64,000 nt of DNA from an uncultured Acidobacteriota bacterium (GCA_963737465.1 CAVTTC010000014.1:103567-167566); one strand, 5' to 3'; shown: positions 9,970-26,927, counted from the stretch's first letter. Notes: generated by a model from the letters alone, not told the origin. Numbers and translations are program-made.

Positions 9970-11301
9970 TTACGTTGCCCGTTCCTGCAACTTCCCCTCC
10001 ACCGTTGTCGCCCAACCCGGCTGTGTGCCAGCGGCCTCACGCTTCTCTCGAATCAACCGCAGATTCCGTACGGTGGTCTCCGGTTCCCATTTCTCCCGGA
10101 TTGACACCAGCGCCTTGCCCAACATCTTCTTCGCTTCCGCTTCGTTCGATTCGATGACTGCCAGCTCGATCAGCGTCGCGTAATCCCAATAATCGGGTTT
10201 GCCGTTGGCGATCTTCCTCTCCACGGCGTAGCGCACCACAGGTATGATCTTGATCCGCCGGTCGTCGGGAGGATTGCTCAACTCCATGAGGGTCGCGGCG
10301 TTCACGCCCGGATACGCATCCCGCCAGTCCGTTTCGAAGCCCTTCAGGTACGCTTCCACCGCCTGGGAAAGATACTCGGCCGCCTCAATGTCGTCGCCGG
10401 CTTTAGCGGCGTTCTCCCAGCGATCTTTGTACACGCGTCCCAGCAGCCCATAGGTTTCGCTGCTCGGACCCCGCTCGTCGATCAACTGCTTCAGCACTGT
10501 CTCGGCCTCGTCTGCCCGCCCCATCCGGTTCAGTGCGAACGCCAACTGCTCGCGCACCATGACGGTCTGTGCCAAGGGCTGCGACATTCTCCTGTAGAGC
10601 GCCTCCATGTCGCGCCACGCCTTGGTCGCACGATAGGAGAGGAACAGATCCACCACCACACCAGCGTCGCTGTCCGCGACGTTGCCGAGTTCCCTCTCCA
10701 CGGCCCGCACCGCATCGGCCCCGTCCTTGCGTGCCGAGGCCAGATTCGTTTTCAAGCGTTTTGAATACTCCACCTGCTCCCGGAACACGTCCGTCTTGAG
10801 GTGATCCACTGATGCCGGTCTGAGGTTGTCGAGCAGTTGGTAGATAGGACTGTCCTGAGCGCCGTTGCGGGCCTCTGCGAGGAATCGAGCGATCGCCGCC
10901 CGGGTTCTTTCGAGTTTCTCCGGGTCCGGAACCCCGTCCTTCCTGAGTCCGTACGGGATCGTCCGCAACATCTGGACATCGAATGGAAGGCGGCTGCCTT
11001 CGGCGATCAACTGCACTGTCGAAAACGGCCGGAAGGCATGCCGCACACCGAGTTCGTAATAGACGTTGGCGTTGGCCAGCGTGAGGTCGGCCACCGCGAA
11101 CGGGCACAGGATCAACCGCTCGAACATCGGCTTGTGGATAATACCACCCGCAGTCTCCTGATCGGCGCGGATCGGTTCGAGGGCGGCGGCGGCGATCGCG
11201 GGCGCGATCAAGTCGGCGTAAACCTTGTCAAAATCGATCAACGTTCCATCCGGCGCGGGTTTCTGGCCGAACGGCATAAGGATGAAGCACAGGGGGTTCA
11301 T
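9970..11301 (-). CDS. NDT/TIR-like Rossmann domain fused to DUF4071 (ASK1/MAP3K-type TRAF-binding TPR) domain protein
   Basis: 443 aa. The N-terminus is CFILMPFGQK ... LANANVYYELGVRHA. The C-terminal helical repeats have the core YGLLGRVYKDRW ... YLKGFETDWRDAYPGVNAATLM. Starts 19 nt downstream of the 636-aa gene. Confidence 0.65.
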   Translation of the reverse strand: MNPLCFILMPFGQKPAPDGTLIDFDKVYADLIAPAIAAAALEPIRADQETAGGIIHKPMFERLILCPFAVADLTLANANVYYELGVRHAFRPFSTVQLIAEGSRLPFDVQMLRTIPYGLRKDGVPDPEKLERTRAAIARFLAEARNGAQDSPIYQLLDNLRPASVDHLKTDVFREQVEYSKRLKTNLASARKDGADAVRAVERELGNVADSDAGVVVDLFLSYRATKAWRDMEALYRRMSQPLAQTVMVREQLAFALNRMGRADEAETVLKQLIDERGPSSETYGLLGRVYKDRWENAAKAGDDIEAAEYLSQAVEAYLKGFETDWRDAYPGVNAATLMELSNPPDDRRIKIIPVVRYAVERKIANGKPDYWDYATLIELAVIESNEAEAKKMLGKALVSIREKWEPETTVRNLRLIREKREAAGTQPGWATTVEGKLQERAT

Positions 11302-11320
11302 GATACCTCTCGAGACTGAC

Positions 11321-13231
11321 TTATTCGCATACTATGCACCGAAAGCCGGTATATGGGTTTGTGTCATCGGGATTCAGTGCCACCTGCGGGACATGCAAAC
11401 GGGAGAGCGGCGTATTATAAGCGCCGCCTAGCGCATCCGACTTCGGAAGCTCGATGACGGCGCCGCTATATGGCGCCTCCGACGTTAGCACGTACCGCTT
11501 CGTCCATTCCCACACGTTGCCGAGCAGATCGTAGAGTCCCCAGGTATTCGGTTTCTGCAGTCCCACGGGATGGATCCGATCGTCGGAATTCTCACGGCAC
11601 CACGCCACGATTCGCACTACCGTAGGATCATCGCCCCACCAGTACGTAGACTCGGCCCCGGCCCGAAAAAGCTGCTTCCATTCGTCGGCGCTCGGCAGTT
11701 CCAGCATGGCCCAACTGCAAAACCGCTCGGCATCTGTGACCGACACGTTCACCACCGGCGCATCATCCGGTTCCTTTGCCGCCTGTAGGTGTTTCGGAAG
11801 TGCGTACCCGGTTGCCTGACAAAACTGCCGGTATTGTTGATTCGTGACGGGATAGCGTCCGGCCCAGATCGTTTTTCCTTCCCGGGTCTGGACCGGGACT
11901 TTCACCAATTGATATTGCGAGTTGCCGAAGTTGCGCTCTCCGAGGTTCACCGTCATTGGCAGCCTACGGTCGGGAACCTTCTTCAAAAGATCGATGAACT
12001 GGTTGATGTTCTGAAACACCTTCTCCTGGACGAAGACATCGGTCACGGGCCGGGTCTTTTCATGCCGGATGACGGTCAATCGATCGGAACTGCCTTTGTG
12101 CGAGCCGTGAAATGTCCGCGCCAAAAACCACCCGGCCAGCACTCCATTGGCAGCGTTGTCTGCTCCGTCCCGGACGTCTGAACCTTCGGCAAACGGAGTG
12201 ATCGCCCACACAATTTGGGCGACTCCGGCCAGTCTCTCTCCGGCCTCATTGAAATTCGACCCTTCCGGCGGTCTGTCCCAGTGCTCGGTGGTGTCGCCCT
12301 CCAGTTCCCGTAGTGCGGCGCCCGCGTGGCGCGACGACAAAAAGAGCGTCGCCCCGCTCTCCGGCACAGCGCCGGCCTCTTTCGGCTTGTACCACTTGCT
12401 CTCGTTCTTGATGTAACTTCTGAGCTGGGTCAAGTTCTCGATTGCCTCGACGTTAAAACCCCTGAACAGCGACTTCTGCAGCCACGCCGGGACGCTCGAT
12501 CCAAAGCACACCAGGCATGTCGGCTTGCGGAAACCCAATGCCAGACCAGCCTCGAACCCGACGTTCGCATTCGGGCGGTCGGTCACCACCAGCACGCGGT
12601 CATGATCTCTGATTCCGGGCAGCACGGTGTTCAGCAGAATGTCGCCGCCCGATCCCGATTCCCTTCTCGGAATTTGAAAGCGGAATCCTTCCGGCGGCTG
12701 CCGTTCGAGCGAGGTCAGGATCAAGTCCACATCCAACAACTCGAAGTCCCAAACCACGAACACCGAAGCCTCTTCCGCGACTTCTCCTTCCAGCATCTCC
12801 AGTTGGGCGGAAACCGCCGCCCCGATCGTCGCGGGCTGAAAATATCCAAAGCGTTGAGATGTTTTCACCTTCTCGAAAAACGCGCGTAACGGCTTCAACC
12901 GGTTCGGATGATCCCAGGCTTCCATCGCCGTCGGCGGTATCCAGGACACCGATTCGTCCGGCAACAGGGCTCGCACCGGCTTGCGCGCTTTGAGCATGGC
13001 ATCCCATTCGAGTTCCTGGATGCCTTGCCCAGCCTCATCGTGCCCATATGTATAAGCCGAGATCAGCAGGAGCGCGTCGCATGCCTTGGCAGTCTCCAGG
13101 CGATTCGGGTAGCCCGGTCCGTCCGCCACCGTCCACCCGGCTGCTTTCGCTACCGCAATGGCGCTCTCGGCATAAGTCCTGAGATCGTCCGTGTAGGTCA
13201 GGTACAATTTTTGGGGCTTCTCTGCCGCCAT
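11321..13231 (-). CDS. multidomain protein: DUF4062-like + tandem NDT/TIR-like Rossmann units + C-terminal FGE-sulfatase (SUMF1) domain
   Basis: 636 aa. DUF4062 pattern: KLYLTYTDDLRTYAES...CDALLLISAYTYGH...ELEWDAMLKARKPVRALL. Rossmann-unit motif: VVTDRPNANVGFEAGLALGFRKP. FGE motifs: YPVTNQQYRQFC, VVNVSVTDAERFCSW, LPSADEWK, WGLYDLLGNVWEWT, GFRCI. Confidence 0.7.
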   Translation of the reverse strand: MAAEKPQKLYLTYTDDLRTYAESAIAVAKAAGWTVADGPGYPNRLETAKACDALLLISAYTYGHDEAGQGIQELEWDAMLKARKPVRALLPDESVSWIPPTAMEAWDHPNRLKPLRAFFEKVKTSQRFGYFQPATIGAAVSAQLEMLEGEVAEEASVFVVWDFELLDVDLILTSLERQPPEGFRFQIPRRESGSGGDILLNTVLPGIRDHDRVLVVTDRPNANVGFEAGLALGFRKPTCLVCFGSSVPAWLQKSLFRGFNVEAIENLTQLRSYIKNESKWYKPKEAGAVPESGATLFLSSRHAGAALRELEGDTTEHWDRPPEGSNFNEAGERLAGVAQIVWAITPFAEGSDVRDGADNAANGVLAGWFLARTFHGSHKGSSDRLTVIRHEKTRPVTDVFVQEKVFQNINQFIDLLKKVPDRRLPMTVNLGERNFGNSQYQLVKVPVQTREGKTIWAGRYPVTNQQYRQFCQATGYALPKHLQAAKEPDDAPVVNVSVTDAERFCSWAMLELPSADEWKQLFRAGAESTYWWGDDPTVVRIVAWCRENSDDRIHPVGLQKPNTWGLYDLLGNVWEWTKRYVLTSEAPYSGAVIELPKSDALGGAYNTPLSRLHVPQVALNPDDTNPYTGFRCIVCE

Positions 13232-14075: not shown

Positions 14076-14267
14076 TCAACTCCGTTCGAGTTCAACAACT
14101 CGATAAACTCGCACAAGTCCTTGCCGAGCCGCATCGGGACGCATGGTATCGCGGAGGGTCATTACGATCTCGATGCGTTCCTCCGGAGTCAAATTCGCGT
14201 CCGCACAGGCATCGGCCTCATCCGCTTCTTCCAGACTCGAGAAGACTCGTACCGTTTTCTCGATCAA
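14076..14267 (-). CDS. small acidic conserved hypothetical (antitoxin-like), followed by a truncated nucleotidyltransferase-like remnant
   Basis: 63 aa: RVFSSLEEADEAD...LTPEERIEIVMTL...RVYRVVELERS. Immediately downstream (14075-14010, reverse) only about 20 codons remain: VEFVVTGAFAGVGVDH..*. Confidence 0.4.
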   Translation of the reverse strand: MIEKTVRVFSSLEEADEADACADANLTPEERIEIVMTLRDTMRPDAARQGLVRVYRVVELERS

Positions 14268-14317
14268 TCTTTCTTCACCGTCCCGCTGACGTCACGCCCA
14301 CCCGATAGAATGTTTCT

Positions 14318-16489
14318 GTGCGCAACCCTGCTTGTCTCCTCCTTCTCCTCGCCGGTACCCTCGCGGCGCAATCCATCGACTATTCCGCCGCCCGCAAAAC
14401 CTGGATCCTCAAAACCGATTCCAGCGCCTACGCCATCGGCGTGAATCAGCGCGGTGAGTTGCAGAACCTCTACTGGGGTGGACCCCTCTGGCGCTCCGAC
14501 GACATCGGCGCGGCCCAGGCCGGTCCCGAATGGTCTTCCTTCGATCCCTCGCAGTCGCTGACCAATGAGGAGTTCACCGGCTGGGGCGGCACCCGCTATT
14601 TCGAGCCGTCCCTCAAGATCTCTCGCGCGAACGGCGTGCGCGATCTCGTCCTGCACTACTCCTCGCACACCATCAACGGCAATCAGCTGAACATCGTCCT
14701 CAAGGACATCAACGACGATCTGTTCGTCACTCTGAACTACCTCGTCTACCCTCGGGAAGGGATCATCCGCAAACAGGCCAGGCTGGAGAATCGCACCGGA
14801 CAGCCCGTGACTGTGGAGAGTTTCCAATCCGGCGTCTGGTGCCTGCCCCATGGTGAAGGCTACCGCCTCAGCTATCTCACCGGACGCTGGGCCGCCGAGA
14901 CTCAACTCACTCGCGAGGACATCCACACCGGATCGAAGATCATCGAGAGCCGCAAGGGACATACCAGCCACAACGCGAACCCGTGGTTTGCCATCGACGA
15001 AGGCGGCGCAGCGAACGAGCAGTCCGGACGTGTCTGGTTCGGCGCCCTTGGCTGGAGCGGGAACTGGCGCATCACCGTCGAGCAGACACCGTATTCGCAG
15101 GTACGCGTCACCGGCGGTTGGAACCCGTTCGATTTCTCCTACACCGTGAAGCCCGGCGCATCGCTCGAGACGCCGCCCTTCTATGGCGGATTCTCGAACC
15201 ACGGCTTCGGCGAAGCCTCCCGCATCCTGCACCGCTTCGAGCGCACCCAGATTCTGCCCCTGGGCACGAAGGCACGGCTGCGGCCGGTTCTCTACAACTC
15301 CTGGGAAGCCACCGAGTTCGCCGTGGACGAGCCCGGGCAGAAAGCGCTGGCCGAGAAGGCCGCCAAACTCGGCGTGGAACTGTTCGTCATGGACGACGGC
15401 TGGTTCGGTAAGCGCAACACCGACAAGGCGGGTCTCGGCGATTGGACCGTCAATCCCCAGAAGTTCCCGCGAGGACTCACGCCGCTCATCGAATCCGTAA
15501 AGTCGCTGGGCATGGAATTCGGACTGTGGGTGGAGCCCGAAATGGTCAACCCGGATAGCGACCTCTACCGTGCCCATCCCGATTGGGCCATGCATTTCCC
15601 GGGACGCCCGCGTACGGAACTGCGCAATCAGCTGGTGCTGAACATGGCACGCGACGACGTCAAGGAACACATCTTCGGTGTGCTCGACAAACTGGCGAGC
15701 GATTACCCCATCCGTTACTTCAAATGGGACATGAACCGCCCCTTCGCCGAGCCCGGCTGGGAAGGCGTCCAGGATCAGAAGGAATTGTGGGTGAAGTACG
15801 TGCGCAATGTCTATGAGATCTTCGATCGCCTGCGCGCCAAACACCCTGGACTCGAAATCGAATCCTGCTCCGGTGGAGGCGGTCGCGTGGACCTGGGCAT
15901 TCTTCAGCGCGTGGACGAGGTCTGGACATCCGACAACACCGAAGCCTTCGACCGGCTTCGTATCCAGGAAGGCTTCTCCCAGGCTTACGCGCCAAAGATC
16001 ATGTCGGCCTGGGTCACCGACGTTCCGAACATGAACGGTCGCAGCACTCCCCTCCAGTATCGCTTTCTGGTAGCCATGCAGGGTGCGCTCGGAATCGGCT
16101 CCAATCTGAATAAGTTCTCGGCGGATGACACCGCGCTCGCTACACGCATGGTCGCCTATTACAAGCGGATTCGCGGGACGGTGCAGGAAGGAAAGCTGTA
16201 CCGGCTGCTGTCCCCACGCCTGGGCGAGTTGACCGCGAACCAGTACGTCTCCGAGGATGGCAACCAGGCTGTTCTGTTCGCCTTTCTCCACTCGCAGCAA
16301 TACCGGAAACCGGCGCCGGCCATCCGGCTCGCCGGCCTCGACCCAAAGGCCGTGTATCGAGTCCAGGTGCTGGGCCAGACTACGTCGCAAACGTTGAGCG
16401 GCGCATACCTGATGGATCAGGGCGTCACCGTGTCGCTGACGGGCGACTACGATTCCACTTCCGTCCTGCTCGAGAAGGTGGCGAACTGA
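14318..16489 (+). CDS. alpha-galactosidase, glycoside hydrolase family 36
   Basis: 723 aa, GTG start, signal peptide. Motifs NPWFAIDEGG, YNSWEATEF, ELFVMDDGWFGKRN, EFGLWVEPEMVNPDS, YFKWDMNR, ESCSGGGGR, WTSDNTEAFDR. Confidence 0.9.
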   Translation: MRNPACLLLLLAGTLAAQSIDYSAARKTWILKTDSSAYAIGVNQRGELQNLYWGGPLWRSDDIGAAQAGPEWSSFDPSQSLTNEEFTGWGGTRYFEPSLKISRANGVRDLVLHYSSHTINGNQLNIVLKDINDDLFVTLNYLVYPREGIIRKQARLENRTGQPVTVESFQSGVWCLPHGEGYRLSYLTGRWAAETQLTREDIHTGSKIIESRKGHTSHNANPWFAIDEGGAANEQSGRVWFGALGWSGNWRITVEQTPYSQVRVTGGWNPFDFSYTVKPGASLETPPFYGGFSNHGFGEASRILHRFERTQILPLGTKARLRPVLYNSWEATEFAVDEPGQKALAEKAAKLGVELFVMDDGWFGKRNTDKAGLGDWTVNPQKFPRGLTPLIESVKSLGMEFGLWVEPEMVNPDSDLYRAHPDWAMHFPGRPRTELRNQLVLNMARDDVKEHIFGVLDKLASDYPIRYFKWDMNRPFAEPGWEGVQDQKELWVKYVRNVYEIFDRLRAKHPGLEIESCSGGGGRVDLGILQRVDEVWTSDNTEAFDRLRIQEGFSQAYAPKIMSAWVTDVPNMNGRSTPLQYRFLVAMQGALGIGSNLNKFSADDTALATRMVAYYKRIRGTVQEGKLYRLLSPRLGELTANQYVSEDGNQAVLFAFLHSQQYRKPAPAIRLAGLDPKAVYRVQVLGQTTSQTLSGAYLMDQGVTVSLTGDYDSTSVLLEKVAN

Positions 16490-16656
16490 CGCCCGCACCC
16501 GCGGCCGTCGGCCCGGCAAGCAGCTGATTCTACCGAGCCGCGCACGTAAGTAAGCGGTTTCGGACACCTCCTGCCTCGGTCACTGCGAACGGGCTGGGTC
16601 TCGCTGAGTCTCCGGACTTTCGTCATCCCGCGAATCTGTTAAGATCAGTAACCTCA

Positions 16657-18996
16657 ATGGCTGTCTTTGCCGACGTCTTCGCGCGCGAGTTGGAGGAAAT
16701 TGCGAACCGCCGCCGCCTCCTCGGCCTGGAGCCGGTGGATGCCTCACGTGCGCCCTCGCCTTCGCTCGGACTCACCGCACTGGCCTTCTCGGGTGGCGGA
16801 ATCCGCTCCGCCGCATTCTGTCTGGGAGTTCTCCAGTCATTTGCCCGTGCCGGTATCGTCAGAACAGTGGATTACCTGTCGAGTGTCTCCGGCGGAGGTT
16901 ACATCGCTTCCTGCCTCGAGTCATTGATGAACGATCCGCGTTCCGGCGCCTGCTGCTGCGAGCCTGATCGCTTCCCTTTGCGCAAGGACTCCGGCGTTCC
17001 TGAGACGGTCGTGCTCAGTCATCTCCGCAATAGCGGCAGTTACCTCGGCTCGGGCGGCCTCATCGACAAACTGAGGATCGCCACTCTCGCCCTCCGTGGC
17101 ATTCTGCTCAACATGCTGCTGCTCTTCCCGATGCTGAGTTCGGCCGCTTTCGTCACCGGAATCGCCTATCACTTTCAAGGCGCATCCGCCGTGCGGCAGG
17201 CCCCGATTCTCTTCGTCGTCCTGTGGCTGGGCGGCCTGTTCCTCTTGTTGGTAGTCACGTTTCCATTCATCTCGCGCATCTTCAGCGGCCGCTTCAACTG
17301 GTCCCGCCGCAACGACTACGAACTCGTGCTGACGTTTGCCCTCGCCCTCTTTCTCGGCTCCGTCCTCCTGCTGCCGCTGGCGGTGATTGTCGACAATGTC
17401 CTGCTCTACCCGTGGTCCACGTTCCACCTTTCGAGCCTTCTGACTCTGCGCTACTGGCCCCTGTGGACCTCACTCGCCGGCATCAGCCTTCTTCTGCTGA
17501 TTGCCGGACCGATGGCCGCCACCTCCCGTGCCGCTTGGAGTCTGCTGCTGTATGGCATCGGCATGCTGGGGCCCGTCGTGGTCCTGGCCACCTATCTGCT
17601 CTTCTGTATCCAATGGGTTCGCATTCCCTACCTCTCCCTCAGTCTCGTCGATGAACTGTCTCTGGCCGCCGAACACTCCGAAACGCAATCGAAAACCCTC
17701 GGAAGGTCCAGGCGGCAGCGAGTGGAAAGCGGTCTTGCGGGAGAATTGCAGCGCCGCGGATTAGTGGATAGTATGTCGGAGCCGATCGAGGTGAACCGAG
17801 TGCCTCCGGCAAAAGGCGAAGAAGGGGAGCGTTGGAGCGTCCAAACGAGAAGCCGCACGTTCGTGATTCAGGAGGCGAGCGACCGTCTGGTAATTGTCAT
17901 GAACCCGGGCGATTCGCCCATCCTGCCGGGTTGGCCGCTGGCCGCCTTGAGCCTCGTCTTCCTGCTCATCAACCATCTCCTGCTGGATGTGAACCTGACC
18001 TCGCCGCACGGTTTTTACCGCGACCGCCTCAGCAAGGCCTTCCTATTCCAACTGGCGGAGGATAACGAAATCCAACCTACCGACAGCCTGAAACTCTCCG
18101 AGTTGAATCAGCCGGGGACGGCCGCCCCGTATCACCTGATCAACGCCGCGCTGAACCTGGAAGGCAGCCGGAGGCCCGGATTGCGCGGGCGGAATGCCGA
18201 CTTCTTTCTGTTCTCGAAACACTTCATCGGCAGCGAATCCACCGGCTATTCCCCCACCCACAACATCGAGATGGTGGACACGCACCTGAACCTCGGCACC
18301 GCCATGGCCATCTCCGCCGGCGCCGCCGCTCCCAATATGGGAGCCACCACCCTCAGGCCCCTGATGTTCGTTCTGACGCTGCTCAACATACGGCTCGGGT
18401 ATTGGCTGCCGAATCCGCTACGCCTGGCTGAGGGAGTCCGTCCCGGCCAGCAACACTATTTTGGGCACGCGGGCGCGATCTACGTGATGCGGGAATCATT
18501 GGGTTTGATCGATGAGCGTGGGCGTCGCATCAACGTCTCCGATGGCGGTCACATCGAAAATCTCGGCATCTACGAATTGCTCCGCCGGCGCGCGAAACTC
18601 ATCATTGCCGTGGATGGCGAGGCCGATCCGAAACTGAGCTTCAGCAGCCTGATCAACTTGATTCGGTACGCCCACATCGATATGGGTATCCGGATCGAGA
18701 TCAACCTCGACGCCATCCGGCACGGGACGGATCACTACACTGTCGGAACCATCGAATACGGCAGCGGCGAGAAGGGCGAGTTGCTCTACATCAAGGCCTC
18801 GAAAACCGGGGACGAGAATCCCTATGTTCTCGACTACGCGGCCCGGTACCCCGCATTCCCGCACGAATCGACGACCGACCAGTTCTTCGGCGAAGCCCAG
18901 TTTGAGGCCTATCGCGCCCTCGGGTATCATATCGCTCACCGCGCCCTCGCCGCCCTCCCGCAGATGCCCGGCATTCGCGCCGCCTCGGCGACCTGA
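16657..18996 (+). CDS. patatin/cPLA2-like phospholipase with a large polytopic membrane insertion
   Basis: 779 aa. Oxyanion motif FSGGGIRSAAF (about residues 44-54), nucleophile SSVSGGGY (Ser about 78), catalytic Asp motif VSDGGHIENLG (Asp about 629). At least six hydrophobic helices lie between residues about 140 and 450. Confidence 0.8.
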   Translation: MAVFADVFARELEEIANRRRLLGLEPVDASRAPSPSLGLTALAFSGGGIRSAAFCLGVLQSFARAGIVRTVDYLSSVSGGGYIASCLESLMNDPRSGACCCEPDRFPLRKDSGVPETVVLSHLRNSGSYLGSGGLIDKLRIATLALRGILLNMLLLFPMLSSAAFVTGIAYHFQGASAVRQAPILFVVLWLGGLFLLLVVTFPFISRIFSGRFNWSRRNDYELVLTFALALFLGSVLLLPLAVIVDNVLLYPWSTFHLSSLLTLRYWPLWTSLAGISLLLLIAGPMAATSRAAWSLLLYGIGMLGPVVVLATYLLFCIQWVRIPYLSLSLVDELSLAAEHSETQSKTLGRSRRQRVESGLAGELQRRGLVDSMSEPIEVNRVPPAKGEEGERWSVQTRSRTFVIQEASDRLVIVMNPGDSPILPGWPLAALSLVFLLINHLLLDVNLTSPHGFYRDRLSKAFLFQLAEDNEIQPTDSLKLSELNQPGTAAPYHLINAALNLEGSRRPGLRGRNADFFLFSKHFIGSESTGYSPTHNIEMVDTHLNLGTAMAISAGAAAPNMGATTLRPLMFVLTLLNIRLGYWLPNPLRLAEGVRPGQQHYFGHAGAIYVMRESLGLIDERGRRINVSDGGHIENLGIYELLRRRAKLIIAVDGEADPKLSFSSLINLIRYAHIDMGIRIEINLDAIRHGTDHYTVGTIEYGSGEKGELLYIKASKTGDENPYVLDYAARYPAFPHESTTDQFFGEAQFEAYRALGYHIAHRALAALPQMPGIRAASAT

Positions 18997-19055: not shown

Positions 19056-19646
19056 TCAGCGCGCCTTTCGGCGTTCCTTCAGGTACTCGTCCCGAAGCCA
19101 CGAGAAATTCATCCAGAAGTCGGGCAACGGCTTCTGTTCGCCATACCAGTTGTCCTGAATCAGGTGGCGGTACATCGCCGTCTTCTCCCAAAACCCATCC
19201 GGAAAATTGAGCAAGGTGTACGCGAAATCGAAGTCGCCGTAGCCGAGCCGGATCAACGCACCCAGATCTTCGTACAGCCGTCCGATCTCGACGAACTCCT
19301 TCAACTCCTCGGAGTGGTACATGTCGCGGCCGATCTTGTGCGCCTGCTGAAACAAATCGTCGGGTTTCGGAAGACAGGCTGTTTCGACAGCGCATTTGCC
19401 GTCCGCATCGGGGACACGGTCGAGAAAGGCCTTAATTCGGGTGTCGAGTTTGCGGCTCTCCTCCGCCATCCCGCGCAGTTCCTTGATGTGGATCAGGCGA
19501 GTCATCCGGAGGTGCAATTCCACTTGCCGGCGCATCTCGGTCATCGTCACGAGTCCCATGACGATGGCCACCATCACGGCCACCAGCACGGTGAGTTGAG
19601 CGATCTTCAGAATGACGTCGAGCTTCGAACGCGAATCGGGTTCCAT
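19056..19646 (-). CDS. membrane-anchored hypothetical protein (DUF4760-like by pattern)
   Basis: 196 aa with a single N-terminal TM (IAQLTVLVAVMVAIVMGLV) and a helical C-terminal domain (EIGRLYEDLGALIRLGYGDFDFAYTLL...WLRDEY). Lies 39 nt downstream of the VWA gene on the same strand. Confidence 0.5.
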   Translation of the reverse strand: MEPDSRSKLDVILKIAQLTVLVAVMVAIVMGLVTMTEMRRQVELHLRMTRLIHIKELRGMAEESRKLDTRIKAFLDRVPDADGKCAVETACLPKPDDLFQQAHKIGRDMYHSEELKEFVEIGRLYEDLGALIRLGYGDFDFAYTLLNFPDGFWEKTAMYRHLIQDNWYGEQKPLPDFWMNFSWLRDEYLKERRKAR

Positions 19647-19685
19647 GAGTGGACAGAGTCCGAGTCATTATAGCGGACTGGCCAC

Positions 19686-22171
19686 TCACCCTCGTTCGAA
19701 CAACCCCCGCCACTTCCTCACCACCAGTTCCGCCAGGTTCAGCGCGATGGCCAGCGCCAGCAGCCCCGGCCACAGCCGCATGGTGGAGGGCACGCTCCGT
19801 CCGGCTGGATCGAAAACAGCTTTTGGCGAGGGGTTGAAATGCCCTCCGGTGAACTCCGATACTTTCCTCAGCAGTAGCTCGTTCGACCCGAAATCCCTCA
19901 ACTCCTCTTCCTGCCGGTAGAACCCGACCTCCGGGAATACCTTCGATTCCGCCAGCGGACGTATCCGGAACAGCCCTTGCCCCTGGCCCACCGGAACCCG
20001 TCCCTGATAAGCGCCGCCCGCCACCTTCACTACCGGTACCGGACGTTGAAACCCGCCCGGCCCAATCGCGAAGATCGCCGGGATTTTGTCCGGCTCCTGC
20101 ATGCTCGGGTCCAGTCGGTAGTCCACCACCAGGTCGCCGTTTGCCGCATCCAGATCGATGCTCGCCTCTCCGGCGTGGGTATGCGGCAGCAGGTCGCGGA
20201 CCACGTTCATCCAGAACTTGTCGTAGCCCGGCCAGGTCACCCAACTCGAGGCCCACCGGCTCTTGGCGTCTGAGGCGAACACCGCGGCCCGGCCCAGGCC
20301 ATACTGCCAGCGCGCGAAGAGCGGATCTTTCCGGGCGTCGATGGTGAGGATAGTGTCCGCCGTGGGCTTTGCGATGAATCGCACATAGCCCTTCAACGGA
20401 GGCGCATTCTCCATCCCCACGCCGTCCAGAATCTCGGCCTGCTTCACCACCACCGGCTGCAGCGGCTTCTCCACCGCCGTGCTTCCGGTATGTTCCATCA
20501 CGTCTTTGAGCAGCAGGCGCTCCAGGCCGGCCGGATCGTTGAGGAGATACGACTTCCCGTTGGCCGTGGTCGCCACCTTCTCCAGGTACGCGCGATTCAC
20601 GTCCTGGCCCAGTCCGACCGTCGAGATCGTAATCCGTCGCTCCAGGGCCTGCCGCGAAATCTCCATCGAATCGCCTTCCTCGGAGATCCCATCGGTGAGC
20701 AGCACGATGTGCTTGAACGTTCCGTTCGTGGCGCTAATCCGGCGAAACGCCTCGGCCAGCGCCGGTGCGATCTGCGTCCCGCCGTCGGGCGTGATGCCTG
20801 ACACCAGCCGTTTAATCAGCGAGCGGTCCTCGGCTTTCCGCATCGGTACCGCCCACTGGAACGAGTTGTCGAAAATCAGCACTCCCACCTGGTCCACCGG
20901 CCGCAGATTGTCGATGACGCCGACGGCAGCCAGCCGCGCCAGTTCAATCTTCCGCCCCTCCATCGACGACGACTTGTCGATGATCAGCACCAGGCAGGTG
21001 CCCTCGGGGGAGCGCGGCGGCGCCACCTTCGCGGGAAGCGTCCGGTCCAGCGCATCCTCGATCTTCTTGCCTTCCGGGTACACGATTCTTCTCACCTCCG
21101 ATGATCAGCAGCCCGCCTCCGCCCTTGACGAAGGTTTCGATCTCGTCTTTGCGTCCCGCCGGAATTCTTTCCAGGTCCTGGTTGTTGAGCACGATCAACT
21201 GAACGTCATTCAACTTGGGCGTCACTGGATCGCTCGCCCGCTCAACATCCACCTGGGCCGCCGCCAGTGCCTCCAGCAGGTTGTTATCGGACCCCGCCGG
21301 GTCTTTCGATACATACAGAATCTTCGGACGCCGCAGAGTCAGCGCCTGATCGAAGCGCAGATCGCCCAGACCGGGAGCCTGCAAGGCCACCGCGAAGATC
21401 CACAGCCCCGGCCACGCTCAGGTTGGCATGCGCACGGATACGATTCAACCCGCGTTCCAACCGCACCGGCGTCTTGCCGATCGTCTTTCCGTCCGCCAGC
21501 ACCTCCAGCGTCCCGGCGCCCTCGCGCGGCGAACTGACCATCAAGTCGATCGGAAAACGTTCGCCCGTGAACGCCAGCGACGACAGGCTAACGGCGTCCA
21601 GGTGCAGGGCCGATTGCGCGCGTCCCGCCATGGGGATGGTGTCGATGGGGATGCCGAGCTGTCGTGCCTGGTAGGCTGCGCGCGCGATACTCCCGCGATT
21701 CTCGTTTCCGTCGGAGATGACCACGATCCGCGGCACCAGCCCCTCGGGAACCGCCGCCAGCGCCTCGCGCACACCCGCTTCCAGGTCCGTGCCGCGCCCG
21801 GCGTCGCTGGCCGTGTGCTTCAGATCCCAGCCCTTTTGCCGTTCCTGCTCGGTTACGGCGCGCGTGGTGCGCGCAAAGGGAATCACGCGGGTCCAATTGC
21901 GCCCGCGGCTTCTATCGATGGCCGTGGCCGTTTCCGACGCGCGCGCCAGGTCCGTGCTGGTGACGCTGGCCGAGGTATCCACCAGAATCGCCACCGCCAT
22001 CTTGGTCTCGAAAATGGAGATCCGTGGCGCCGCCAGCGCGAGCACCAGCGCCACGAACGTAGCCGTCTTCAGCGCCAGGCCGGCCCGCCGGAGGGTCTTG
22101 GAGCGCTCATAGTATGCCCAGATCAGCGGCAGCGCCAAAAAGAACAGGACCCACGGCCTCTCGAACGTCAT
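19686..22171 (-). pseudogene. large BatA-N/VWA/VWA membrane protein (Bat aerotolerance-operon type), split by two frameshifts
   Basis: Starts MTFERPWVLFFLALPLIW (ATG at 22171, ATGA overlap with the upstream gene), with the first VWA motif AILVDTSASV. The frame changes near 21390 (...AGAVDLR / ALQAPGLGDLRFDQALTLRRPKILYVS) and near 21085 (...GGLLIIGGEKN / VYPEGKKIEDALDRTLP). The second VWA motif is LVLIIDKSSSM ... GGTQIAPAL. Confidence 0.75.
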
Positions 22172-24075
22172 GATGCCTTCCTCTGCAGAACCCTGGTCCG
22201 CGTCTGCACGGTGCGGCGCCACGTCCACGCTTGACGCCGTCCCCGCCCGTACAGGATCCATTCGATCATCAGCACCGCCGTCCCGGCCAGGGCCAGCCAC
22301 GGCCATAAATCCACCACGCGGTTATGGGTGCGCGACGCTCTCGGGATTCCCCGGGCTACTCGCGGCGGCACGTTCCACCGGGTCTCGCCCAGTTCCGGCA
22401 GCGTCAGCGAGTAGGCGATCTCCCGGTCGCCCGCCTGCAGCCGGTAATTCCCCGGCGTCCCAGCGAAGAAGCGCACGTGTTCGTTCTGCACGGTATAAGG
22501 GATCGTCTGCCCCGCATCGGACCGGACGTCCACGGACTTGGCATCGACATTAGGGCCCAACCGTGCCTCAACGGTACCCACCGAGCCGGCGTTCAGTTCC
22601 CATTGCTGGAACACGGCCGGATTGATCCAGCGCAGGATGTTGGCAAACAGCAGCGGCGTTGCGAGTTCGTATTTCATCACTGAGAGCACGGGGTGGAAGC
22701 CGAACACAACCAGCTTGGGCGTCGTCGCGGTCTGGGGGCGCGCCAGGATCACCGGCCCAGCCTCCACCGAAGCTACCGCGATGTCGCCATTCTCGGCCGC
22801 GAACACGGACGTGCTCTCCAATTCCAGATCGCGAGTGCGGAGCCCGGTGCCCAGGTCGTGCGACGAGTTCCACGTTGCCAGCTTCGCCTTGCTCACCACG
22901 TTGCGAATCCGTACCGGCGACCGCTCGCCCGGCGGGTCGATAAAAATCGCCGGCGCGGCGGGAGCAGCCACGGGAGCGAACCGGTCCAGCACCACTGCGT
23001 CGGCCTTCGCCCGAGCATCGTAGGAAGCCACCGGCCGATACACGGCCCGCACATTGCCGCTCGCGCCCAGCACAGCGCGCAGCAGATCCGGCTCGTTGGA
23101 ATACACCACCACGTTCAGCGATGGCTGGGCGGGGACTTCCAGCACCGCGCGGTCGTCTTCCGGGAAGGTATCGCTCGCAAGCAACCGGGCTTCCAGCCAT
23201 CCCGCGGCGCGAGTGCGGAACGCGAACGACGATTCCTGCTGCTCGCCCGGCTTCAGGGCCAGCGTGCGGCTTCCAACAGGGGCCCCGCCAAACTGCACTG
23301 CGAGTTGGACCGTGCGTTGTTCCGAGCCGTAGTTGCGCGTCGAGACGAACACCTGCCAGGTCTCCGCATCGGCGCGCCGCAGCCCGATCTTGCGCAGCCC
23401 GCAGTTCTCGAGCGGCGCTGGGATGGGGATCACGCGCAGATTCGCCGGAACCGTCACGTCGGCCTCGCCCCCGCCTACCCGTCCGGGGCCGATGTAGACA
23501 ATCTCGCCGGGGTGCGGGGAATGTAGTTTCTGCACACGCCCTGCAAATTCGATCGCTTGTTCCAGGTTCAGCGCGGCCGCTTCGGGCTTCGATTCGCGGA
23601 TGCTCCGTTCCAGTACCGCGCGGTTCGCGTCGAACGGTGTCACCGGAGTAGCCAGGGCGTCGGCGCGGACCACCATGAGGCGGTCGTCGGGCGGAAGGTT
23701 CTTGAGGTAGGCGAGTGCAACCAGGCGGGCGTCGTCCATCAGTGTGCCGCGATCGGTGCGCGCTCCCATCCACGCCGAAGTGTCCAGGATCAGGACGTGA
23801 TCGCGAATGTTGGCGCCGCGGTCGCCCCACTGCATCTGTGCGATGGCCAGCAGCAGCAGCACCATGCCCAGCAATTGGAGCAGTAGGGACCACGGCTGCT
23901 GGATGCGCCGTTTCTGCTTCATCGATTCCGCGGTTTGAGCCGATTTCCAGAACCGCAGCGTCGCCACCACCTGCTTACGCCGCGACCGGTCGAGCAGGTA
24001 CAGCGTCACCAGGGCGGCCGAGATGGTTGTGGCGAGCGCAAATAGCTCAGGCAGGCTGAGATTGAGGAGCGACAC
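22168..24075 (-). CDS. BatA-N-terminal-domain membrane protein with VWA-like region
   Basis: 635 aa. The N-terminal LPELFALATTISAALVTLYLLDRSRRK pattern matches the aerotolerance-regulator N-terminal domain. There is a second TM, then DHVLILDTSAWMG, and a C-terminal TM. Confidence 0.7.
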   Translation of the reverse strand: MSLLNLSLPELFALATTISAALVTLYLLDRSRRKQVVATLRFWKSAQTAESMKQKRRIQQPWSLLLQLLGMVLLLLAIAQMQWGDRGANIRDHVLILDTSAWMGARTDRGTLMDDARLVALAYLKNLPPDDRLMVVRADALATPVTPFDANRAVLERSIRESKPEAAALNLEQAIEFAGRVQKLHSPHPGEIVYIGPGRVGGGEADVTVPANLRVIPIPAPLENCGLRKIGLRRADAETWQVFVSTRNYGSEQRTVQLAVQFGGAPVGSRTLALKPGEQQESSFAFRTRAAGWLEARLLASDTFPEDDRAVLEVPAQPSLNVVVYSNEPDLLRAVLGASGNVRAVYRPVASYDARAKADAVVLDRFAPVAAPAAPAIFIDPPGERSPVRIRNVVSKAKLATWNSSHDLGTGLRTRDLELESTSVFAAENGDIAVASVEAGPVILARPQTATTPKLVVFGFHPVLSVMKYELATPLLFANILRWINPAVFQQWELNAGSVGTVEARLGPNVDAKSVDVRSDAGQTIPYTVQNEHVRFFAGTPGNYRLQAGDREIAYSLTLPELGETRWNVPPRVARGIPRASRTHNRVVDLWPWLALAGTAVLMIEWILYGRGRRQAWTWRRTVQTRTRVLQRKAS

Positions 24076-24206
24076 GGAATCTTACTTAACTGTAACAGCC
24101 CAGGGTGCGCCGAACAGGAACTTGGGCCTGTCGGTAGCAATGCACGGAGACGGCCAGATCTTCTACGGGGCGGGCGTCAACTAGCCCTACAGTGAAGAGA
24201 GGATGT

Positions 24207-24332
24207 ATGGCAATGACAACCAAAGACGCGCTTCATCACCTAGTTGAACAGCTCCTGGACGACCAGGCGGAACTTGCTCGCACCTGGCTTGAGGATCTCC
24301 GAAACGCGGCCGGCGTGGATTGTGATCTATAG
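24207..24332 (+). CDS. 41-aa acidic antitoxin-like ORF followed by a RelE/ParE-like toxin remnant
   Basis: AGAGGA 4 nt upstream of the ATG. The product is MAMTTKDALHHLVEQLLDDQAELARTWLEDL.... The next frame, starting inside its last codons, reads WIVIYSDAVGHEAEKILDRP, like the start of RelE/ParE toxins, but then degenerates. Confidence 0.3.
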   Translation: MAMTTKDALHHLVEQLLDDQAELARTWLEDLRNAAGVDCDL

Positions 24333-24408
24333 CGATGCTGTTGGCCATGAGGCAGAAAAGATCCTGGACCGTCCCGCCATACTTAGGGTCTGCTATCGCG
24401 CCACGCGC

Positions 24409-24778
24409 CTACTTCGAACGGCCGGGATGAAGGTGGCTGGTCCTGAACTGCGCTTCCGGCCGGAAGGCCGGGACCAGATCGGTCCGGCTGAAGTCCTGCC
24501 CCTTGAAAAGGAGCGGTTCTCGAGACACCTTCGCGAGAGCATAGGTAAAACAGTCGCCGAAGTTCAGGGCGGCCGGATGCATGCCTTTGCCGAATAGCTG
24601 GAAAGCCTGCCTTGCCACGTTCACCTGCTCCGAGAAGGGCGCGTGTCACCGGATCGCCATTCCAGTCGACGAATATTGCGGCTTCAAGATAACTCGCAAC
24701 CGACTGCGGACCCGTCCGCGCCTTCTGTCCGCTTCGGGTTCACGAAGCAGAATCGCGAGGAGGCGGAAGTGTCTTGAT
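24409..24778 (-). pseudogene. vapC: VapC-type PIN-domain toxin, decayed (frameshifts and an internal deletion)
   Basis: Fragments lie in three frames: DTSA / LLAILLREPEAD / YLEAAIFVDWNGDPVTRAL / EQVNVARQAFQLFGKGMHPAALNFGDCFTYALAKVSREPLLFKGQDFSRTDL. There is no usable start codon, and about 15-20 residues are missing between the third and fourth pieces. Confidence 0.6.
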
Positions 24779-25036
24779 TTACCGGGGCAGTCTGTCGCCA
24801 CCGTACAGTAGGGTGGCATGATCGGAGGCCTTGCAGCTCCGGGGCATGGCGGCTGTGAAACGTTCAGAAAACGCCAGGATCCTGGCTGCCGTGGCCTTTG
24901 TCGCTCGCCGGTTCTCCTTCTCGGCGAGCTTCGATTCGAGCGCGTGAATTACGGCACTCGTCAGGCTTTCGCCGGTCAGGTCAGAGAGGCGACGGGCAAG
25001 TTCGTAGGCTCGTGGATTCTTGATGTTGAGGTTCAT
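24779..25036 (-). CDS. vapB: VapB-type antitoxin (Rv0623-like, PSK transcription-factor family)
   Basis: 85 aa from the ATG at 25036: MNLNIKNPRAYELARRLSDLTGESLTSAVIHALESKLAEK.... Starts 8 nt after the DUF58 stop. The tracked 128-aa ORF has an unlikely upstream extension. Confidence 0.75.
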   Translation of the reverse strand: MNLNIKNPRAYELARRLSDLTGESLTSAVIHALESKLAEKENRRATKATAARILAFSERFTAAMPRSCKASDHATLLYGGDRLPR

Positions 25037-25044
25037 ATACCCAC

Positions 25045-25935
25045 CTACTGCACCGTCTGCGTGTGCACCACCGGCCCGAAAATCGCATCCTCCAACGCCA
25101 GCGACGTCGAAAACCCGCAATACCGGCCGTTGTTGCGCACCGCGACGTTTTCCAGCCGTTCGCAATACTGGTCGAACTCGGCCGTGTAGTGCTCCCGGGT
25201 GGCCTGGTCGAAGTTCAGCGTCAACTTAGTCGCCGTCTCTGCGTCCTCTAAGTCGAGTTCCCCGTCCCATGGCGGAGTCCGATCTTCATCGGCCCATAAT
25301 TGCAGCAGCAGTAACTCGTGCCCGAACTCGGAGAGATACTGCAACGGCTTCACGCAATCGGAGTCATCCAGGAAATCCGAAATCACGATGAGCAACCCGC
25401 GCTGCGGATAATTCGCAATGAACTGCCGTGCCGCCGACAGAAAGTCCGTCGGCCCGCCCACCTCGATTTGCTGCAGAAAATCCACGGCGGGCATGAATCG
25501 GTGCCGCCCGCCGCCCGCCAGAAACGAGTCATACAGGTGGTCGCTGAAAGGCTGCAGGCAGATCGTATCCAGCCGGACCAGCCCCACATAGGCAAGCGCC
25601 GCCGCCAGTTGCTTCGCATACAGAAGCTTGGAGGGCGACCCGGTATTCATCGATGGGCTGATGTCGATCAGCATCCGCACCGGAACTCGCGGCTCCACCT
25701 GGAACATCTTCAGGAACAGCTTCTCCAGGCGCAGGTACGCTCGCCAGTTGACGGCCCGCAGGTCGTCGCCGTGATGGAAATGGCGGTGGTCGAGAAACTC
25801 GATCCCCGATCCAGGGAACCGCGAGAGGTTGTGACCGCCCACCAACCCGGGAAACGACTTGCGCCATCGGACGGTCAGACGTTCGAGCTTCTCCAGCAGG
25901 TGCCGGTCAATCAGGCCTTGCTGCGGAGCCGCCAT
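25045..25935 (-). CDS. DUF58 domain protein (MoxR-associated, VWA-like)
   Basis: Start MAAPQQGLIDRHLLEKLERL at 25935, in a TAATG overlap with moxR. Motifs GSGIEFLDHRHFHHGDDLRAVNWRAYLR and MLIDISPSM. Confidence 0.85.
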   Translation of the reverse strand: MAAPQQGLIDRHLLEKLERLTVRWRKSFPGLVGGHNLSRFPGSGIEFLDHRHFHHGDDLRAVNWRAYLRLEKLFLKMFQVEPRVPVRMLIDISPSMNTGSPSKLLYAKQLAAALAYVGLVRLDTICLQPFSDHLYDSFLAGGGRHRFMPAVDFLQQIEVGGPTDFLSAARQFIANYPQRGLLIVISDFLDDSDCVKPLQYLSEFGHELLLLQLWADEDRTPPWDGELDLEDAETATKLTLNFDQATREHYTAEFDQYCERLENVAVRNNGRYCGFSTSLALEDAIFGPVVHTQTVQ

Positions 25936-26927
25936 TACACTCCTGCCTTGGCCGCGACCCCATCCAGCACGCGTTTCAGAATCGTCTCCGCCGTTTGCCC
26001 GTCGGCATGCGCGTCGAAGTTGAGGATGATGCGATGACGCAGGACGCCCGCAGCCACCTCCCGGATATCGTCGATGCTCAAGTGCAGCCGGCTGCGCATC
26101 AACGCCAGCACCCGTCCGCATTCCACCAATGCCTGCGCGCCGCGGGGGGAACTGCCGTAGCGCACGTACTTGTTGGCGATGTCGTGGGCGTAGGGTGTCC
26201 CGGGCTGCGTGGCCATCACCAGGTCAATCGCGTATTCCTGAACATGCGGCGCCACCAGCACCTCGCGGCAGATGGAACGCAGCCGCAGGATGGCCTCGCG
26301 ATCCACAATCTGGCTCAGTTGCACCTCCTCCCTCTGTATGGTGCGATCCACGATCCGGTTCAGCTCCTCCCGCGACGGGTACTCCACCAGGATCTTCATC
26401 AGAAATCGATCCAGCTGAGCCTCGGGCAGCGGATACGTGCCTTCCATCTCGATGGGGTTCTGGGTTGCCATCACCAGGAACGGAAGGTCGAGTTCATGGG
26501 TGGTGTTGCCGCTCGTCACGGTGCGCTCCTGCATCGCTTCCAGCAGCGCCGACTGCGTTTTCGGAGTGGCGCGGTTGATTTCATCGGCCAGCACCAGGTT
26601 CGCGAAAATGGGCCCCGGCTGAAACCGTAGGGCCTTCCCTCCGCGATCGTCGGTTTCGATGATCATGCTGCCCACAATATCGGCGGGCATCAGGTCCGGC
26701 GTGAACTGGATGCGGGAATATTTCAGATGCAGCACGCGCGCCAGTGTCCGTAGCAGGGTGGTTTTTCCCAGGCCCGGTACGCCTTCCAGCAGGACGTGGC
26801 CGCCGGCCAGCAGGCAGATCAGGACGCCATCCACCACATCCAACTGGCCGACAATGACTTTCCCGATTTCCGCGCGGACGGTGTTGAGTTGGGCCACCGC
26901 TTCTTGTAACGATTCTTCAGTGCGCAC
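25935..26927 (-). CDS. MoxR-family AAA+ ATPase
   Basis: 330 aa with Walker A GVPGLGKT, RIQFTPDLMPADIVG, Walker B LADEINRA, and the C-terminal SPRGAQAL lid. Confidence 0.9.
   Translation of the reverse strand: MRTEESLQEAVAQLNTVRAEIGKVIVGQLDVVDGVLICLLAGGHVLLEGVPGLGKTTLLRTLARVLHLKYSRIQFTPDLMPADIVGSMIIETDDRGGKALRFQPGPIFANLVLADEINRATPKTQSALLEAMQERTVTSGNTTHELDLPFLVMATQNPIEMEGTYPLPEAQLDRFLMKILVEYPSREELNRIVDRTIQREEVQLSQIVDREAILRLRSICREVLVAPHVQEYAIDLVMATQPGTPYAHDIANKYVRYGSSPRGAQALVECGRVLALMRSRLHLSIDDIREVAAGVLRHRIILNFDAHADGQTAETILKRVLDGVAAKAGV

Follow-up and report, generated by a model that had tools for sequence, protein, structure and literature searches.

Do two adjacent genes at positions 9,970 to 13,231 of a 64,000-nt stretch of DNA from an uncultured Acidobacteriota bacterium (GCA_963737465.1 CAVTTC010000014.1:103567-167566; hereafter "the window") form an immune system and, if they do, which protein sends a signal and which receives it? 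Gene A encodes a 636-aa protein of four parts and gene B a 443-aa protein. The two open reading frames (ORFs) are intact, run in the same direction and lie 19 nt apart, and the coordinates and strand given in a preliminary description of the locus proved exact (Table 1). The spacer, GTCAGTCTCGAGAGGTATC, contains no terminator-like element and the two genes are therefore likely transcribed together. That description had proposed a sensor/effector pair centred on nucleotide chemistry, which agrees with what was found: catalytic motifs are intact in both proteins, the FGE-sulfatase (FGS) domain of gene A lacks the catalytic residues, and relatives of gene A adjoin a gene for a TPR-S protein in six of eight contexts. 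Its statement that no named system has this pairing survives in part: gene B falls within the ThsI family of effectors in type VIII Thoeris, whereas gene A was not found described as a partner. We rate the chances about even that the pair constitutes a two-gene Thoeris-like (type VIII-like) nucleotide-signalling defence cassette.

The assignment of gene B draws on its domains, its catalytic residues and the company of its relatives. The DUF4071/ASK1-type repeats noticed earlier are recognised by Pfam as MAP3K_TRAF_bd (PF13281, former DUF4071; residues 81-424, E 6e-41, 141 bits, cutoff 24.1), and with them TPR-S (PF20308; residues 229-339, E 3e-28, 99 bits, cutoff 27.6), a family that the preliminary description did not name. 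A search of PDB sequences matched the central regulatory region of ASK1/MAP3K5 (5ULM) and the ASK1 cryo-EM structure (8QGY) at E ~4e-6; the likeness to a GRIYKD...FKKAFE...GINYAVLL core, pointed out in the preliminary description, is present in this alignment, which extends weakly into the pre-TPR region. Unlike ASK1, gene B is bacterial, has no kinase (by Pfam) or PH domain and ends after the TPR region at 443 aa, and its N-glycosidase-type domain is predicted to be catalytically intact. This N-terminal domain has the motif N77-A-N79-V-Y-Y-E83-L-G, with N77, N79 and E83 invariant in 12 diverse family members. The family profile of the domain gives a borderline match to Rcl/DNPH1 (E 0.016-0.04) with the motif aligned on GVGYELG, and the PADLOC "Effector TIR" model matches residues 46-114 weakly (E 7e-6); the PADLOC library used (version 2.0.0, 2023) is older than type VIII Thoeris.

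In type VIII Thoeris, the ThsB TIR protein makes canonical cyclic ADP-ribose (cADPR) on infection, and the TPR domain of ThsI, a "CMP hydrolase and TPR" effector, is the proposed cADPR receptor; phage-triggered cADPR and defence are known for this type only in Yersinia and Pseudomonas systems (Yirmiya et al., Sorek laboratory, bioRxiv 10.64898/2025.12.03.692087). The validated Yersinia ThsB TIR, with its sequence taken from Table S1 of that preprint, led to an E. coli IncP plasmid with a TIR gene of 56% identity; next to this gene is a "TRAFs-binding domain-containing protein" with Pfam TPR-S. Between that protein and gene B the alignment covers 330 residues (27% identity, E 3e-25), pairs NANAIYELGVRHA with NANVYYELGVRHA and preserves the catalytic motif. 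Intermediates 57-60% identical to gene B directly adjoin ThsB_TIR genes in Dehalococcoidales, Pelotomaculum and Trichloromonas (L051, L080, L082). In the BcTir/BcTpr system of B. cereus, the N82A and E86A substitutions in BcTpr abolish NADase activity and defence (bioRxiv 10.1101/2023.05.26.542521); N77, N79 and E83 of gene B match BcTpr N80-P-N82...E86 in both residue and spacing. From the ThsB-linked homologue, the intermediates beside ThsB_TIR and the BcTpr-type residues, gene B is identified as a ThsI-family effector of a subfamily distinct from enterobacterial ThsI. By analogy, its TPR region is proposed to be the receptor of a nucleotide signal.

Gene A ends in the clear FGE-sulfatase/SUMF1 domain already noted (PF03781, residues 431-633, E 9e-31), for which the best PDB match is SUMF2/pFGE (1Y4J, E 5e-14). 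In FGE the catalytic, copper-binding Cys pair lies in the segment GGS-x-x-C-x-x-x-x-C-x-R-Y-R; when gene A is aligned with T. curvata FGE (5NXL, 6S07), the first Cys falls in an absent segment and the second aligns with Leu. Since both are missing, the FGS domain is probably a non-catalytic, C-type-lectin-like fold that binds rather than catalyses, and is proposed to be a ligand- or invader-binding sensor. Its C-terminal position is that described for FGS in conflict systems (Kaur et al.). No NTPase family was detected in gene A by Pfam or NCBIfam, the latter returning only sub-threshold FGE-fold relatives; the interval between unit (i), at the N-terminus, and FGS is filled by a tandem alpha/beta module, and NACHT was found only in a distant FGS relative (P0006).

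The tandem module, residues 155-430, is one conserved module of ~270 aa. It is N-terminal in 234 representative proteins of 260-2264 aa, in which its two halves, units (ii) and (iii), always occur together, and its AlphaFold (AF2) model has a pLDDT of 86 and a pTM of 0.88. Unit (ii) has the motif D-x-P-N221-A-N223-V-G-F-E227-x-G, with N221, N223 and E227 invariant in 20-21 diverse sequences. The module profile, compared with PDB sequences, matched Rcl/DNPH1 (E 6.5e-5) and placed PNANVGFExG on PSLGVGYELG, the motif that holds the catalytic Glu of DNPH1. A short relative (P0297) carries Pfam Nuc_deoxyrib_tr (PF05014), and hhalign aligned unit (ii) with the N-domain of gene B on the same motif (E 1e-4). 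Thus the superfamily of the original assignment, nucleoside 2-deoxyribosyltransferase (NDT)/TIR-like, holds, and the evidence favours its DNPH1/NDT (DRHyd) side. DRHyd is a TIR-related domain predicted to generate second messengers (Kaur et al., eLife), to which unit (ii) corresponds. Unit (iii), anticipated as a further unit, is a real conserved alpha/beta domain with invariant W342, N359 and D398 and a near-invariant R354-D355-G356. It matched neither unit (ii) nor the gene B N-domain nor TIR in hhalign, which gave no support to an origin by internal duplication of unit (ii), and Foldseek gave TM <=0.30 to anything in the PDB. With the whole module, Foldseek returned only low-TM matches to two-lobed alpha/beta proteins (PleD, periplasmic-binding-fold).

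Elsewhere the module is fused to trypsin-type peptidases, to astacin with Sel1 repeats, or to iSTAND, and some proteins have much longer C-terminal regions, such as a 2,264-aa protein in L108. In L101 (2669-9616) the gene for a module-iSTAND fusion precedes a MoxR-type AAA gene and two large genes lacking annotation, the layout of the iSTAND ternary systems of Kaur et al. 2020. A metagenome scan with the module returned only 14 loci, in which the full gene A architecture was absent with the exception of one fragment. In L109 (598-1368), a short metagenome contig, one ORF encodes unit (i) and the adjacent one the start of the module; the gene is either naturally split or interrupted by a frameshift error. 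No relatives of the module were found in IMG/VR viral contigs.

Unit (i), residues 1-150, is restricted to close relatives of gene A. It had been described as DUF4062; the family and structure comparisons favour a DUF4062/TIR-like domain, and the copy in the window itself fits only weakly. DUF4062 is matched by 7 of 17 gene A family members (best 9e-6) and TIR_2 by one; the unit (i) profile matches a bona fide DUF4062 protein in locus L088 (E 2e-5), and hhalign to a TIR alignment gives 92% probability and E 6e-7. In Foldseek, the AF2 model (pLDDT 87) is closest to plant and bacterial TIR domains (RPS4, RRS1, SNC1, RPPT, TIR-STING; best TM 0.57-0.61), with generic flavodoxin-fold and receiver domains nearly as good by E-value. 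Pfam found no TIR family in gene A, an iterative TIR profile did not recruit it at E<=1e-3 (only profile-profile comparison did), and pairwise BLAST against the validated ThsB TIR was not significant (E 0.08). DUF4062 (NIR) is a TIR-like NADase whose catalytic Glu, on helix alphaC (KpSwz E97, Vulcan E98, VstA E103), is needed for defence (three 2026 preprints). The top PDB sequence match of unit (i), a weak one (E 0.66), is the KpSwz TIR/DUF4062, with the Glu of its S-F-T-E on window E73; because the construct begins at residue 15, this Glu corresponds to E97 of the native protein, whose catalytic role has been validated. In hhalign, by contrast, E75 is the residue opposite the TIR Glu. Column 73 is Glu in 15 of 17 sequences and column 75 acidic in 13 of 17, and the window has Glu at both. 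Catalytic competence of unit (i) is plausible but unproven from its sequence.

Full-length relatives of gene A are rare: an indexed search returned four (41-44% identity), and an exhaustive representative and profile search brought the number to ~15 (41-51% identity overall). No name for gene A was found in public sources. Coupling to gene B was assessed on eight distinct A-family genes with pairwise identities of 38-60%, and a TPR-S protein is adjacent in six of these independent contexts. A DUF4071/TPR-S gene lies downstream of the A-family gene in the window, in L090, in L003 (start only, contig ends) and in Ca. Accumulibacter phosphatis (L092-L094), where a TIR_2 gene lies upstream; the order is swapped in L002, with the DUF4071/TPR-S gene upstream; and in L095 the neighbours are a patatin gene and a TPR-S protein of another kind, 670 aa long. 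The A homologue in L092-L094 is 646 aa long, and the three-gene set of L093 is beside a Gp49/HI1420-type toxin-antitoxin pair; in L095 (4836-10079) the order is A relative, patatin, TPR-S protein, the last with a weak NitrOD2-like C-terminal match. Partner B proteins are 38-55% identical to window gene B and do not form a single lineage versus solo or TIR-linked copies. No TPR-S neighbour was seen next to module proteins with other C-termini. The link between A and TPR-S proteins thus outlasts sequence divergence, change of gene order and exchange of effector, and it is specific to the architecture of unit (i), module and FGS, which is good evidence for functional coupling. An iterative TIR profile (E<=1e-3) found no separate TIR gene in the window region, L090 or L002, so that the only TIR-superfamily domains there are those of A, besides the N-terminal domain of B.

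The wider gene B family was scanned with one genome per species, giving 296 relatives, and genomic context was taken from the best 80 loci (L008-L087). These 80 are 57-78% identical to gene B and come from Acidobacteriota, Nitrospirota, Gamma-, Beta- and Deltaproteobacteria, Gemmatimonadota, Bacteroidota, Chloroflexota, Cyanobacteria, Firmicutes, Verrucomicrobiota and one Nitrososphaeraceae archaeon. For a defence effector, such identity across >10 phyla is unusually high, and suggests wide horizontal transfer together with a tightly constrained ligand or target. Neighbouring ORFs were called and clustered, and the clusters classified with Pfam. Recurrent neighbours are TPR-S-patatin fusions (16 loci), alpha/beta-hydrolase-TPR-S and CHAT-TPR-S proteins, DUF4231/SLATT, LSDAT-SLOG-SLATT, WD40 proteins with TIR N-termini, and ThsB_TIR; by the iterative TIR profile, 30/80 loci have a TIR ORF <=10 kb from the gene B relative. 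Plasmid pCC511_4 of Rhizobium sophoriradicis (L096) carries a gene B homologue, three TIR genes and a DUF4231 gene, equivalent to the mixed ThsH/ThsI layout mentioned in the type VIII Thoeris preprint. Other copies stand alone between housekeeping genes, such as a 78%-identical one in an Acidobacteria metagenome-assembled genome, in agreement with the 29 of 78 "core Tpr" operons that are solo in the BcTpr preprint, whose partner classes are TIR, YspA, patatin, LSDAT and calcineurin (bioRxiv 10.1101/2023.05.26.542521). QueC-like (7-cyano-7-deazaguanine synthase) genes recur beside ThsI-like genes (L096, L038, L080, L082). In L096 this gene is grouped with an HhH-GPD N-glycosylase, a carbohydrate kinase, the three TIR genes and the DUF4231 gene, and the set may be an undescribed accessory set of TIR-signalling loci. 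Six IMG/VR viral contigs (L117-L122) encode proteins distantly related (27-35% identity) to the N-terminal glycosidase-type domain of the gene B family.

If the pair is a type VIII-like cassette, it might work as follows. The FGS domain of gene A would recognise an infection cue and activate the DUF4062/TIR-like NADase domain, the DNPH1-like tandem module, or both. The activated domains would then make a signal from NAD+, gene A taking the place of the small ThsB TIR protein. Binding of this NAD+-derived nucleotide to the TPR-S repeats of gene B would release its MilB/DNPH1-like N-glycosidase domain, breaking down NAD+ or nucleotides and arresting growth of the infected cell. The domain identities, the intact motifs, the loss of the FGE catalytic cysteines, the place of gene B in the ThsI family and the A-TPR-S adjacency are established by the analysis; that gene A generates the signal, what the signal and the FGS cue may be, the direction in which information would flow and the anti-phage outcome are inferred. 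A bolder version, which we regard as unlikely, is that gene A represents a new class of signal generator: FGS would sense the invader without a STAND NTPase, DUF4062/NIR and the DNPH1-like module, working in series, would make an NAD+-derived messenger, maybe not cADPR, and TPR-S effectors would read it (NDT-TPR-S here, patatin plus TPR-S in L095).

Several findings weigh against the type VIII-like reading. They concern i) the domains of gene A: Pfam DUF4062 (PF13271) scores below threshold on window unit (i) (E 0.18, 12.4 bits, cutoff 24.7), the column of the catalytic Glu varies among relatives and may be either E73 or E75 depending on the alignment, and none of the PADLOC models matches gene A; ii) the chemistry: characterised DUF4062 enzymes hydrolyse NAD+ to ADP-ribose (ADPR) and act as depleting effectors (2026 preprints), and TEP1 reportedly made no cyclic ADPR derivatives; iii) the need for a separate generator: BcTpr, which binds cADPR with a Kd of 1.9 uM, is reported to make its own cADPR isomer (bioRxiv 10.1101/2023.05.26.542521), so that such a generator may be unneeded; iv) gene order: a canonical TIR_2 gene precedes the A and B homologues in Ca. 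Accumulibacter, and gene A may thus be an extra component and not a substitute for ThsB; and v) genomic context: in the DNA available, the A-family genes of L001 and L088/L089 have no TPR-S neighbour, and the cassette is surrounded by housekeeping genes (YjbR, an MFS transporter, a SIMPL protein and a GH36 alpha-galactosidase) instead of a defence island. None of the 80 species-level loci with close gene B relatives has a gene A relative; with many B copies solo, gene B evidently does not need gene A.

In an alternative that we consider somewhat unlikely, gene A is a self-contained sensor-effector, comparable to Vulcan (NIR + HEAT) or Swarozyc, whose FGS would bind a phage protein and whose DUF4062-like and DNPH1-like domains would themselves deplete NAD+ or nucleotides. 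Gene B would be a separate ThsI-type effector that works alone or with a TIR protein elsewhere, and the adjacency would reflect clustering of defence genes or amplification of the response by B through sensing of ADPR-type products. Known DUF4062 domains are NAD+-depleting effectors fused to binding domains, and the tandem module fills the N-terminal effector slot of iSTAND proteins and also occurs fused to trypsin-type peptidases. The frequent solo copies of B, the cADPR isomer reported for BcTpr and the two A relatives without a TPR-S neighbour point the same way. Clustering, however, hardly explains six of eight adjacencies that involve diverged partners, both gene orders and varied effectors, and several A-TPR-S loci are flanked by housekeeping genes and not embedded in defence islands. 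The 19-nt spacing suggests one transcript, and module proteins that lack unit (i) and FGS show no TPR-S neighbours, which ties the link to this architecture.

It is distinctly unlikely that gene A is an accessory or regulator of a TIR-ThsI system, the TIR being encoded elsewhere or lost in the window, and not the source of the signal. It could then be a second sensor that recruits or activates TIR, or an enzyme that sets a threshold by degrading the signalling nucleotide; related systems include accessory enzymes that degrade the signal or are dispensable (MisB, VstB). The TIR_2, A, B order of the Ca. Accumulibacter contigs would suit such a role, as would the module relatives found beside TIR genes in L099/L100, L104 and L110. 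Against it, the cassettes and flanks of the window, L090 and L002 have no TIR gene, a large sensor-type FGS is unusual for a simple signal-degrading enzyme, and the two putative catalytic centres of gene A have been kept, which is typical of generators or effectors. Very improbable, finally, is a non-immune stress or metabolite module in which a lectin-like gene A would sense a glycan or metabolite of the cell itself and B would serve as an ASK1-like regulatory scaffold that hydrolyses nucleotides: the unusual conservation of gene B (57-78% across >10 phyla), its frequent housekeeping surroundings, matched in the window by a context with no island signature, and the absence of either exact protein by name from public sources would fit, but close gene B family members act in phage defence experimentally, the family's neighbours are overwhelmingly conflict-system domains (TIR, SLATT, SLOG, patatin, CHAT, nSTAND), and its distribution is patchy, as expected of horizontal transfer, with carriage on plasmids.

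Table 1. Location of the two genes, their domains and candidate catalytic residues in the window
Feature	Position (nt)	Strand	Basis
Gene A, 636-aa four-part protein	11321..13231	(-)	ORF call
Unit (i), residues 1-150, DUF4062/TIR-like flavodoxin-fold	12782..13231	(-)	AF2, Foldseek, hhalign, Pfam
Unit (i) candidate catalytic Glu, E73 or E75	13007-13015	(-)	alignments
Unit (ii), residues 155-289, DNPH1/Rcl-type NDT-superfamily (DRHyd-like)	12365..12769	(-)	profile, hhalign
Unit (ii) motif P-N221-A-N223-V-G-F-E227-x-G	12551-12571	(-)	invariant in alignment
Unit (iii), residues 290-430, second alpha/beta domain of module	11942..12364	(-)	conservation, AF2
FGS domain, residues 431-636	11324..11941	(-)	Pfam PF03781, PDB matches
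19-nt intergenic spacer	11302..11320	(-)	GAGAGG ribosome-binding site, 6 nt 5' of gene B ATG
Gene B, 443-aa ThsI-family effector	9970..11301	(-)	ORF call, Pfam, homology
Gene B N-terminal catalytic domain (putative), residues 1-165	10807..11301	(-)	motif, profiles
Gene B motif N77-A-N79-V-Y-Y-E83	11053-11073	(-)	family alignment
Gene B TPR region, residues ~170-430	10012..10794	(-)	Pfam TPR-S, ASK1 match
TPR-S core, residues 229-339	10285-10617	(-)	Pfam

The weak hint of foreign origin that had been drawn from G+C content was not borne out. Gene A (58.9%) and gene B (61.2%) fall inside the normal range of the window (61.8% overall; 55% to 67% in a 1-kb profile of the first 30 kb), and foreign origin on this ground was rejected. 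Inspection of tRNA genes and flanking repeats gave no genomic-island signature around the cassette in the window: the sole tRNA gene, at 28.1 kb, is ~15 kb away, and the repeats flanking the cassette are short, chance-level matches. At 16657-18996 (+), 3.4 kb from the cassette, is a gene for a 779-aa patatin-like phospholipase with predicted membrane segments and no TPR-S; a tie to the TPR-S-patatin neighbours of the gene B family was dropped since only the generic GGG-motif region aligns. A 767-aa ORF (14264-16567, -) runs antisense across the whole GH36 alpha-galactosidase gene (14318-16489, +) and is almost certainly a spurious high-G+C shadow ORF. MoxR (AAA_3), DUF58 and vWA genes at 19432-26927 (-) resemble a Bat/MoxR-vWA operon, in which the overlapping ORF pair at 25045-26927 is two distinct genes (DUF58 and MoxR) with over-extended starts, not one frameshifted gene.

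How does the cassette compare with systems already described? It shares with type VIII Thoeris the ThsI architecture of gene B and a two-gene operon with a TIR-superfamily partner. It differs in having no ThsB-type TIR gene, in a partner that is a 636-aa protein of DUF4062-like unit, DNPH1-like tandem and FGS, in a gene B from another, highly conserved subfamily, and in a defence role that is predicted. The type VIII preprint (bioRxiv 10.64898/2025.12.03.692087) credits TPR-S systems to Burroughs & Aravind 2020. Gene B resembles BcTpr in its MilB-like N-glycosidase domain with N-x-N-x-x-x-E followed by a TPR sensor, and solo, TIR-linked and patatin-linked variants also exist among its relatives; the BcTpr partner classes, in contrast, include none with FGS or a DUF4062-like domain. 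The DUF4062/NIR proteins (Swarozyc, Vulcan, Vesta, Evangelion, Avs2-NIR) similarly have a TIR-like domain of NADase type at the N-terminus and, at the C-terminus, a binding domain by which a phage cue is sensed, and unit (i) has a candidate catalytic Glu, at E73 or E75 depending on the alignment. These systems act by direct NAD+ depletion, whereas gene A has a divergent, sub-threshold unit (i), an additional DNPH1-like tandem module and a linked TPR-S effector gene. STAND NTPase-FGS proteins and the iSTAND/VMAP ternary systems (Kaur et al. 2020, 2021, eLife) have N-terminal TIR or DRHyd and strictly C-terminal FGS, and the tandem module itself is fused to iSTAND next to a MoxR-type ATPase (L101), but gene A has neither a STAND/NACHT NTPase nor vWA-MoxR partners and is coupled to a TPR-S effector. 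FGE or sulfatase is not mentioned in the tables of the type VIII Thoeris preprint or in a 2026 DUF4062 preprint, and no description of a protein with DUF4062-like unit, DNPH1-like tandem and FGS but no STAND NTPase was found in the searchable literature. The effector and the general logic are therefore known; the architecture of gene A and its pairing with TPR-S effectors are apparently undescribed.

Thoeris-type systems are to bacteria what TIR signalling is to plants and animals, and the TPR-S sensor of gene B is a bacterial relative of the human ASK1 regulatory region. If gene A does not feed gene B, the locus is one more ThsI-family gene beside a probable stand-alone NADase defence protein, of value for annotation and unsurprising. 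If gene A does feed a TPR-S effector, the position of "sensor plus signal synthase" could be filled by a protein other than a plain TIR, and the cassette would be a tractable case for learning what FGS domains recognise in immunity and for testing DUF4062/NIR and DNPH1-like (DRHyd) domains as makers of messengers, not only destroyers of NAD+. Should gene A prove to be a new class of signal generator, it would be the first DUF4062/NIR domain to act in signalling instead of NAD+ depletion, and would add a fourth route, after TIR, CD-NTase and Cas10, to the activation of such effectors.

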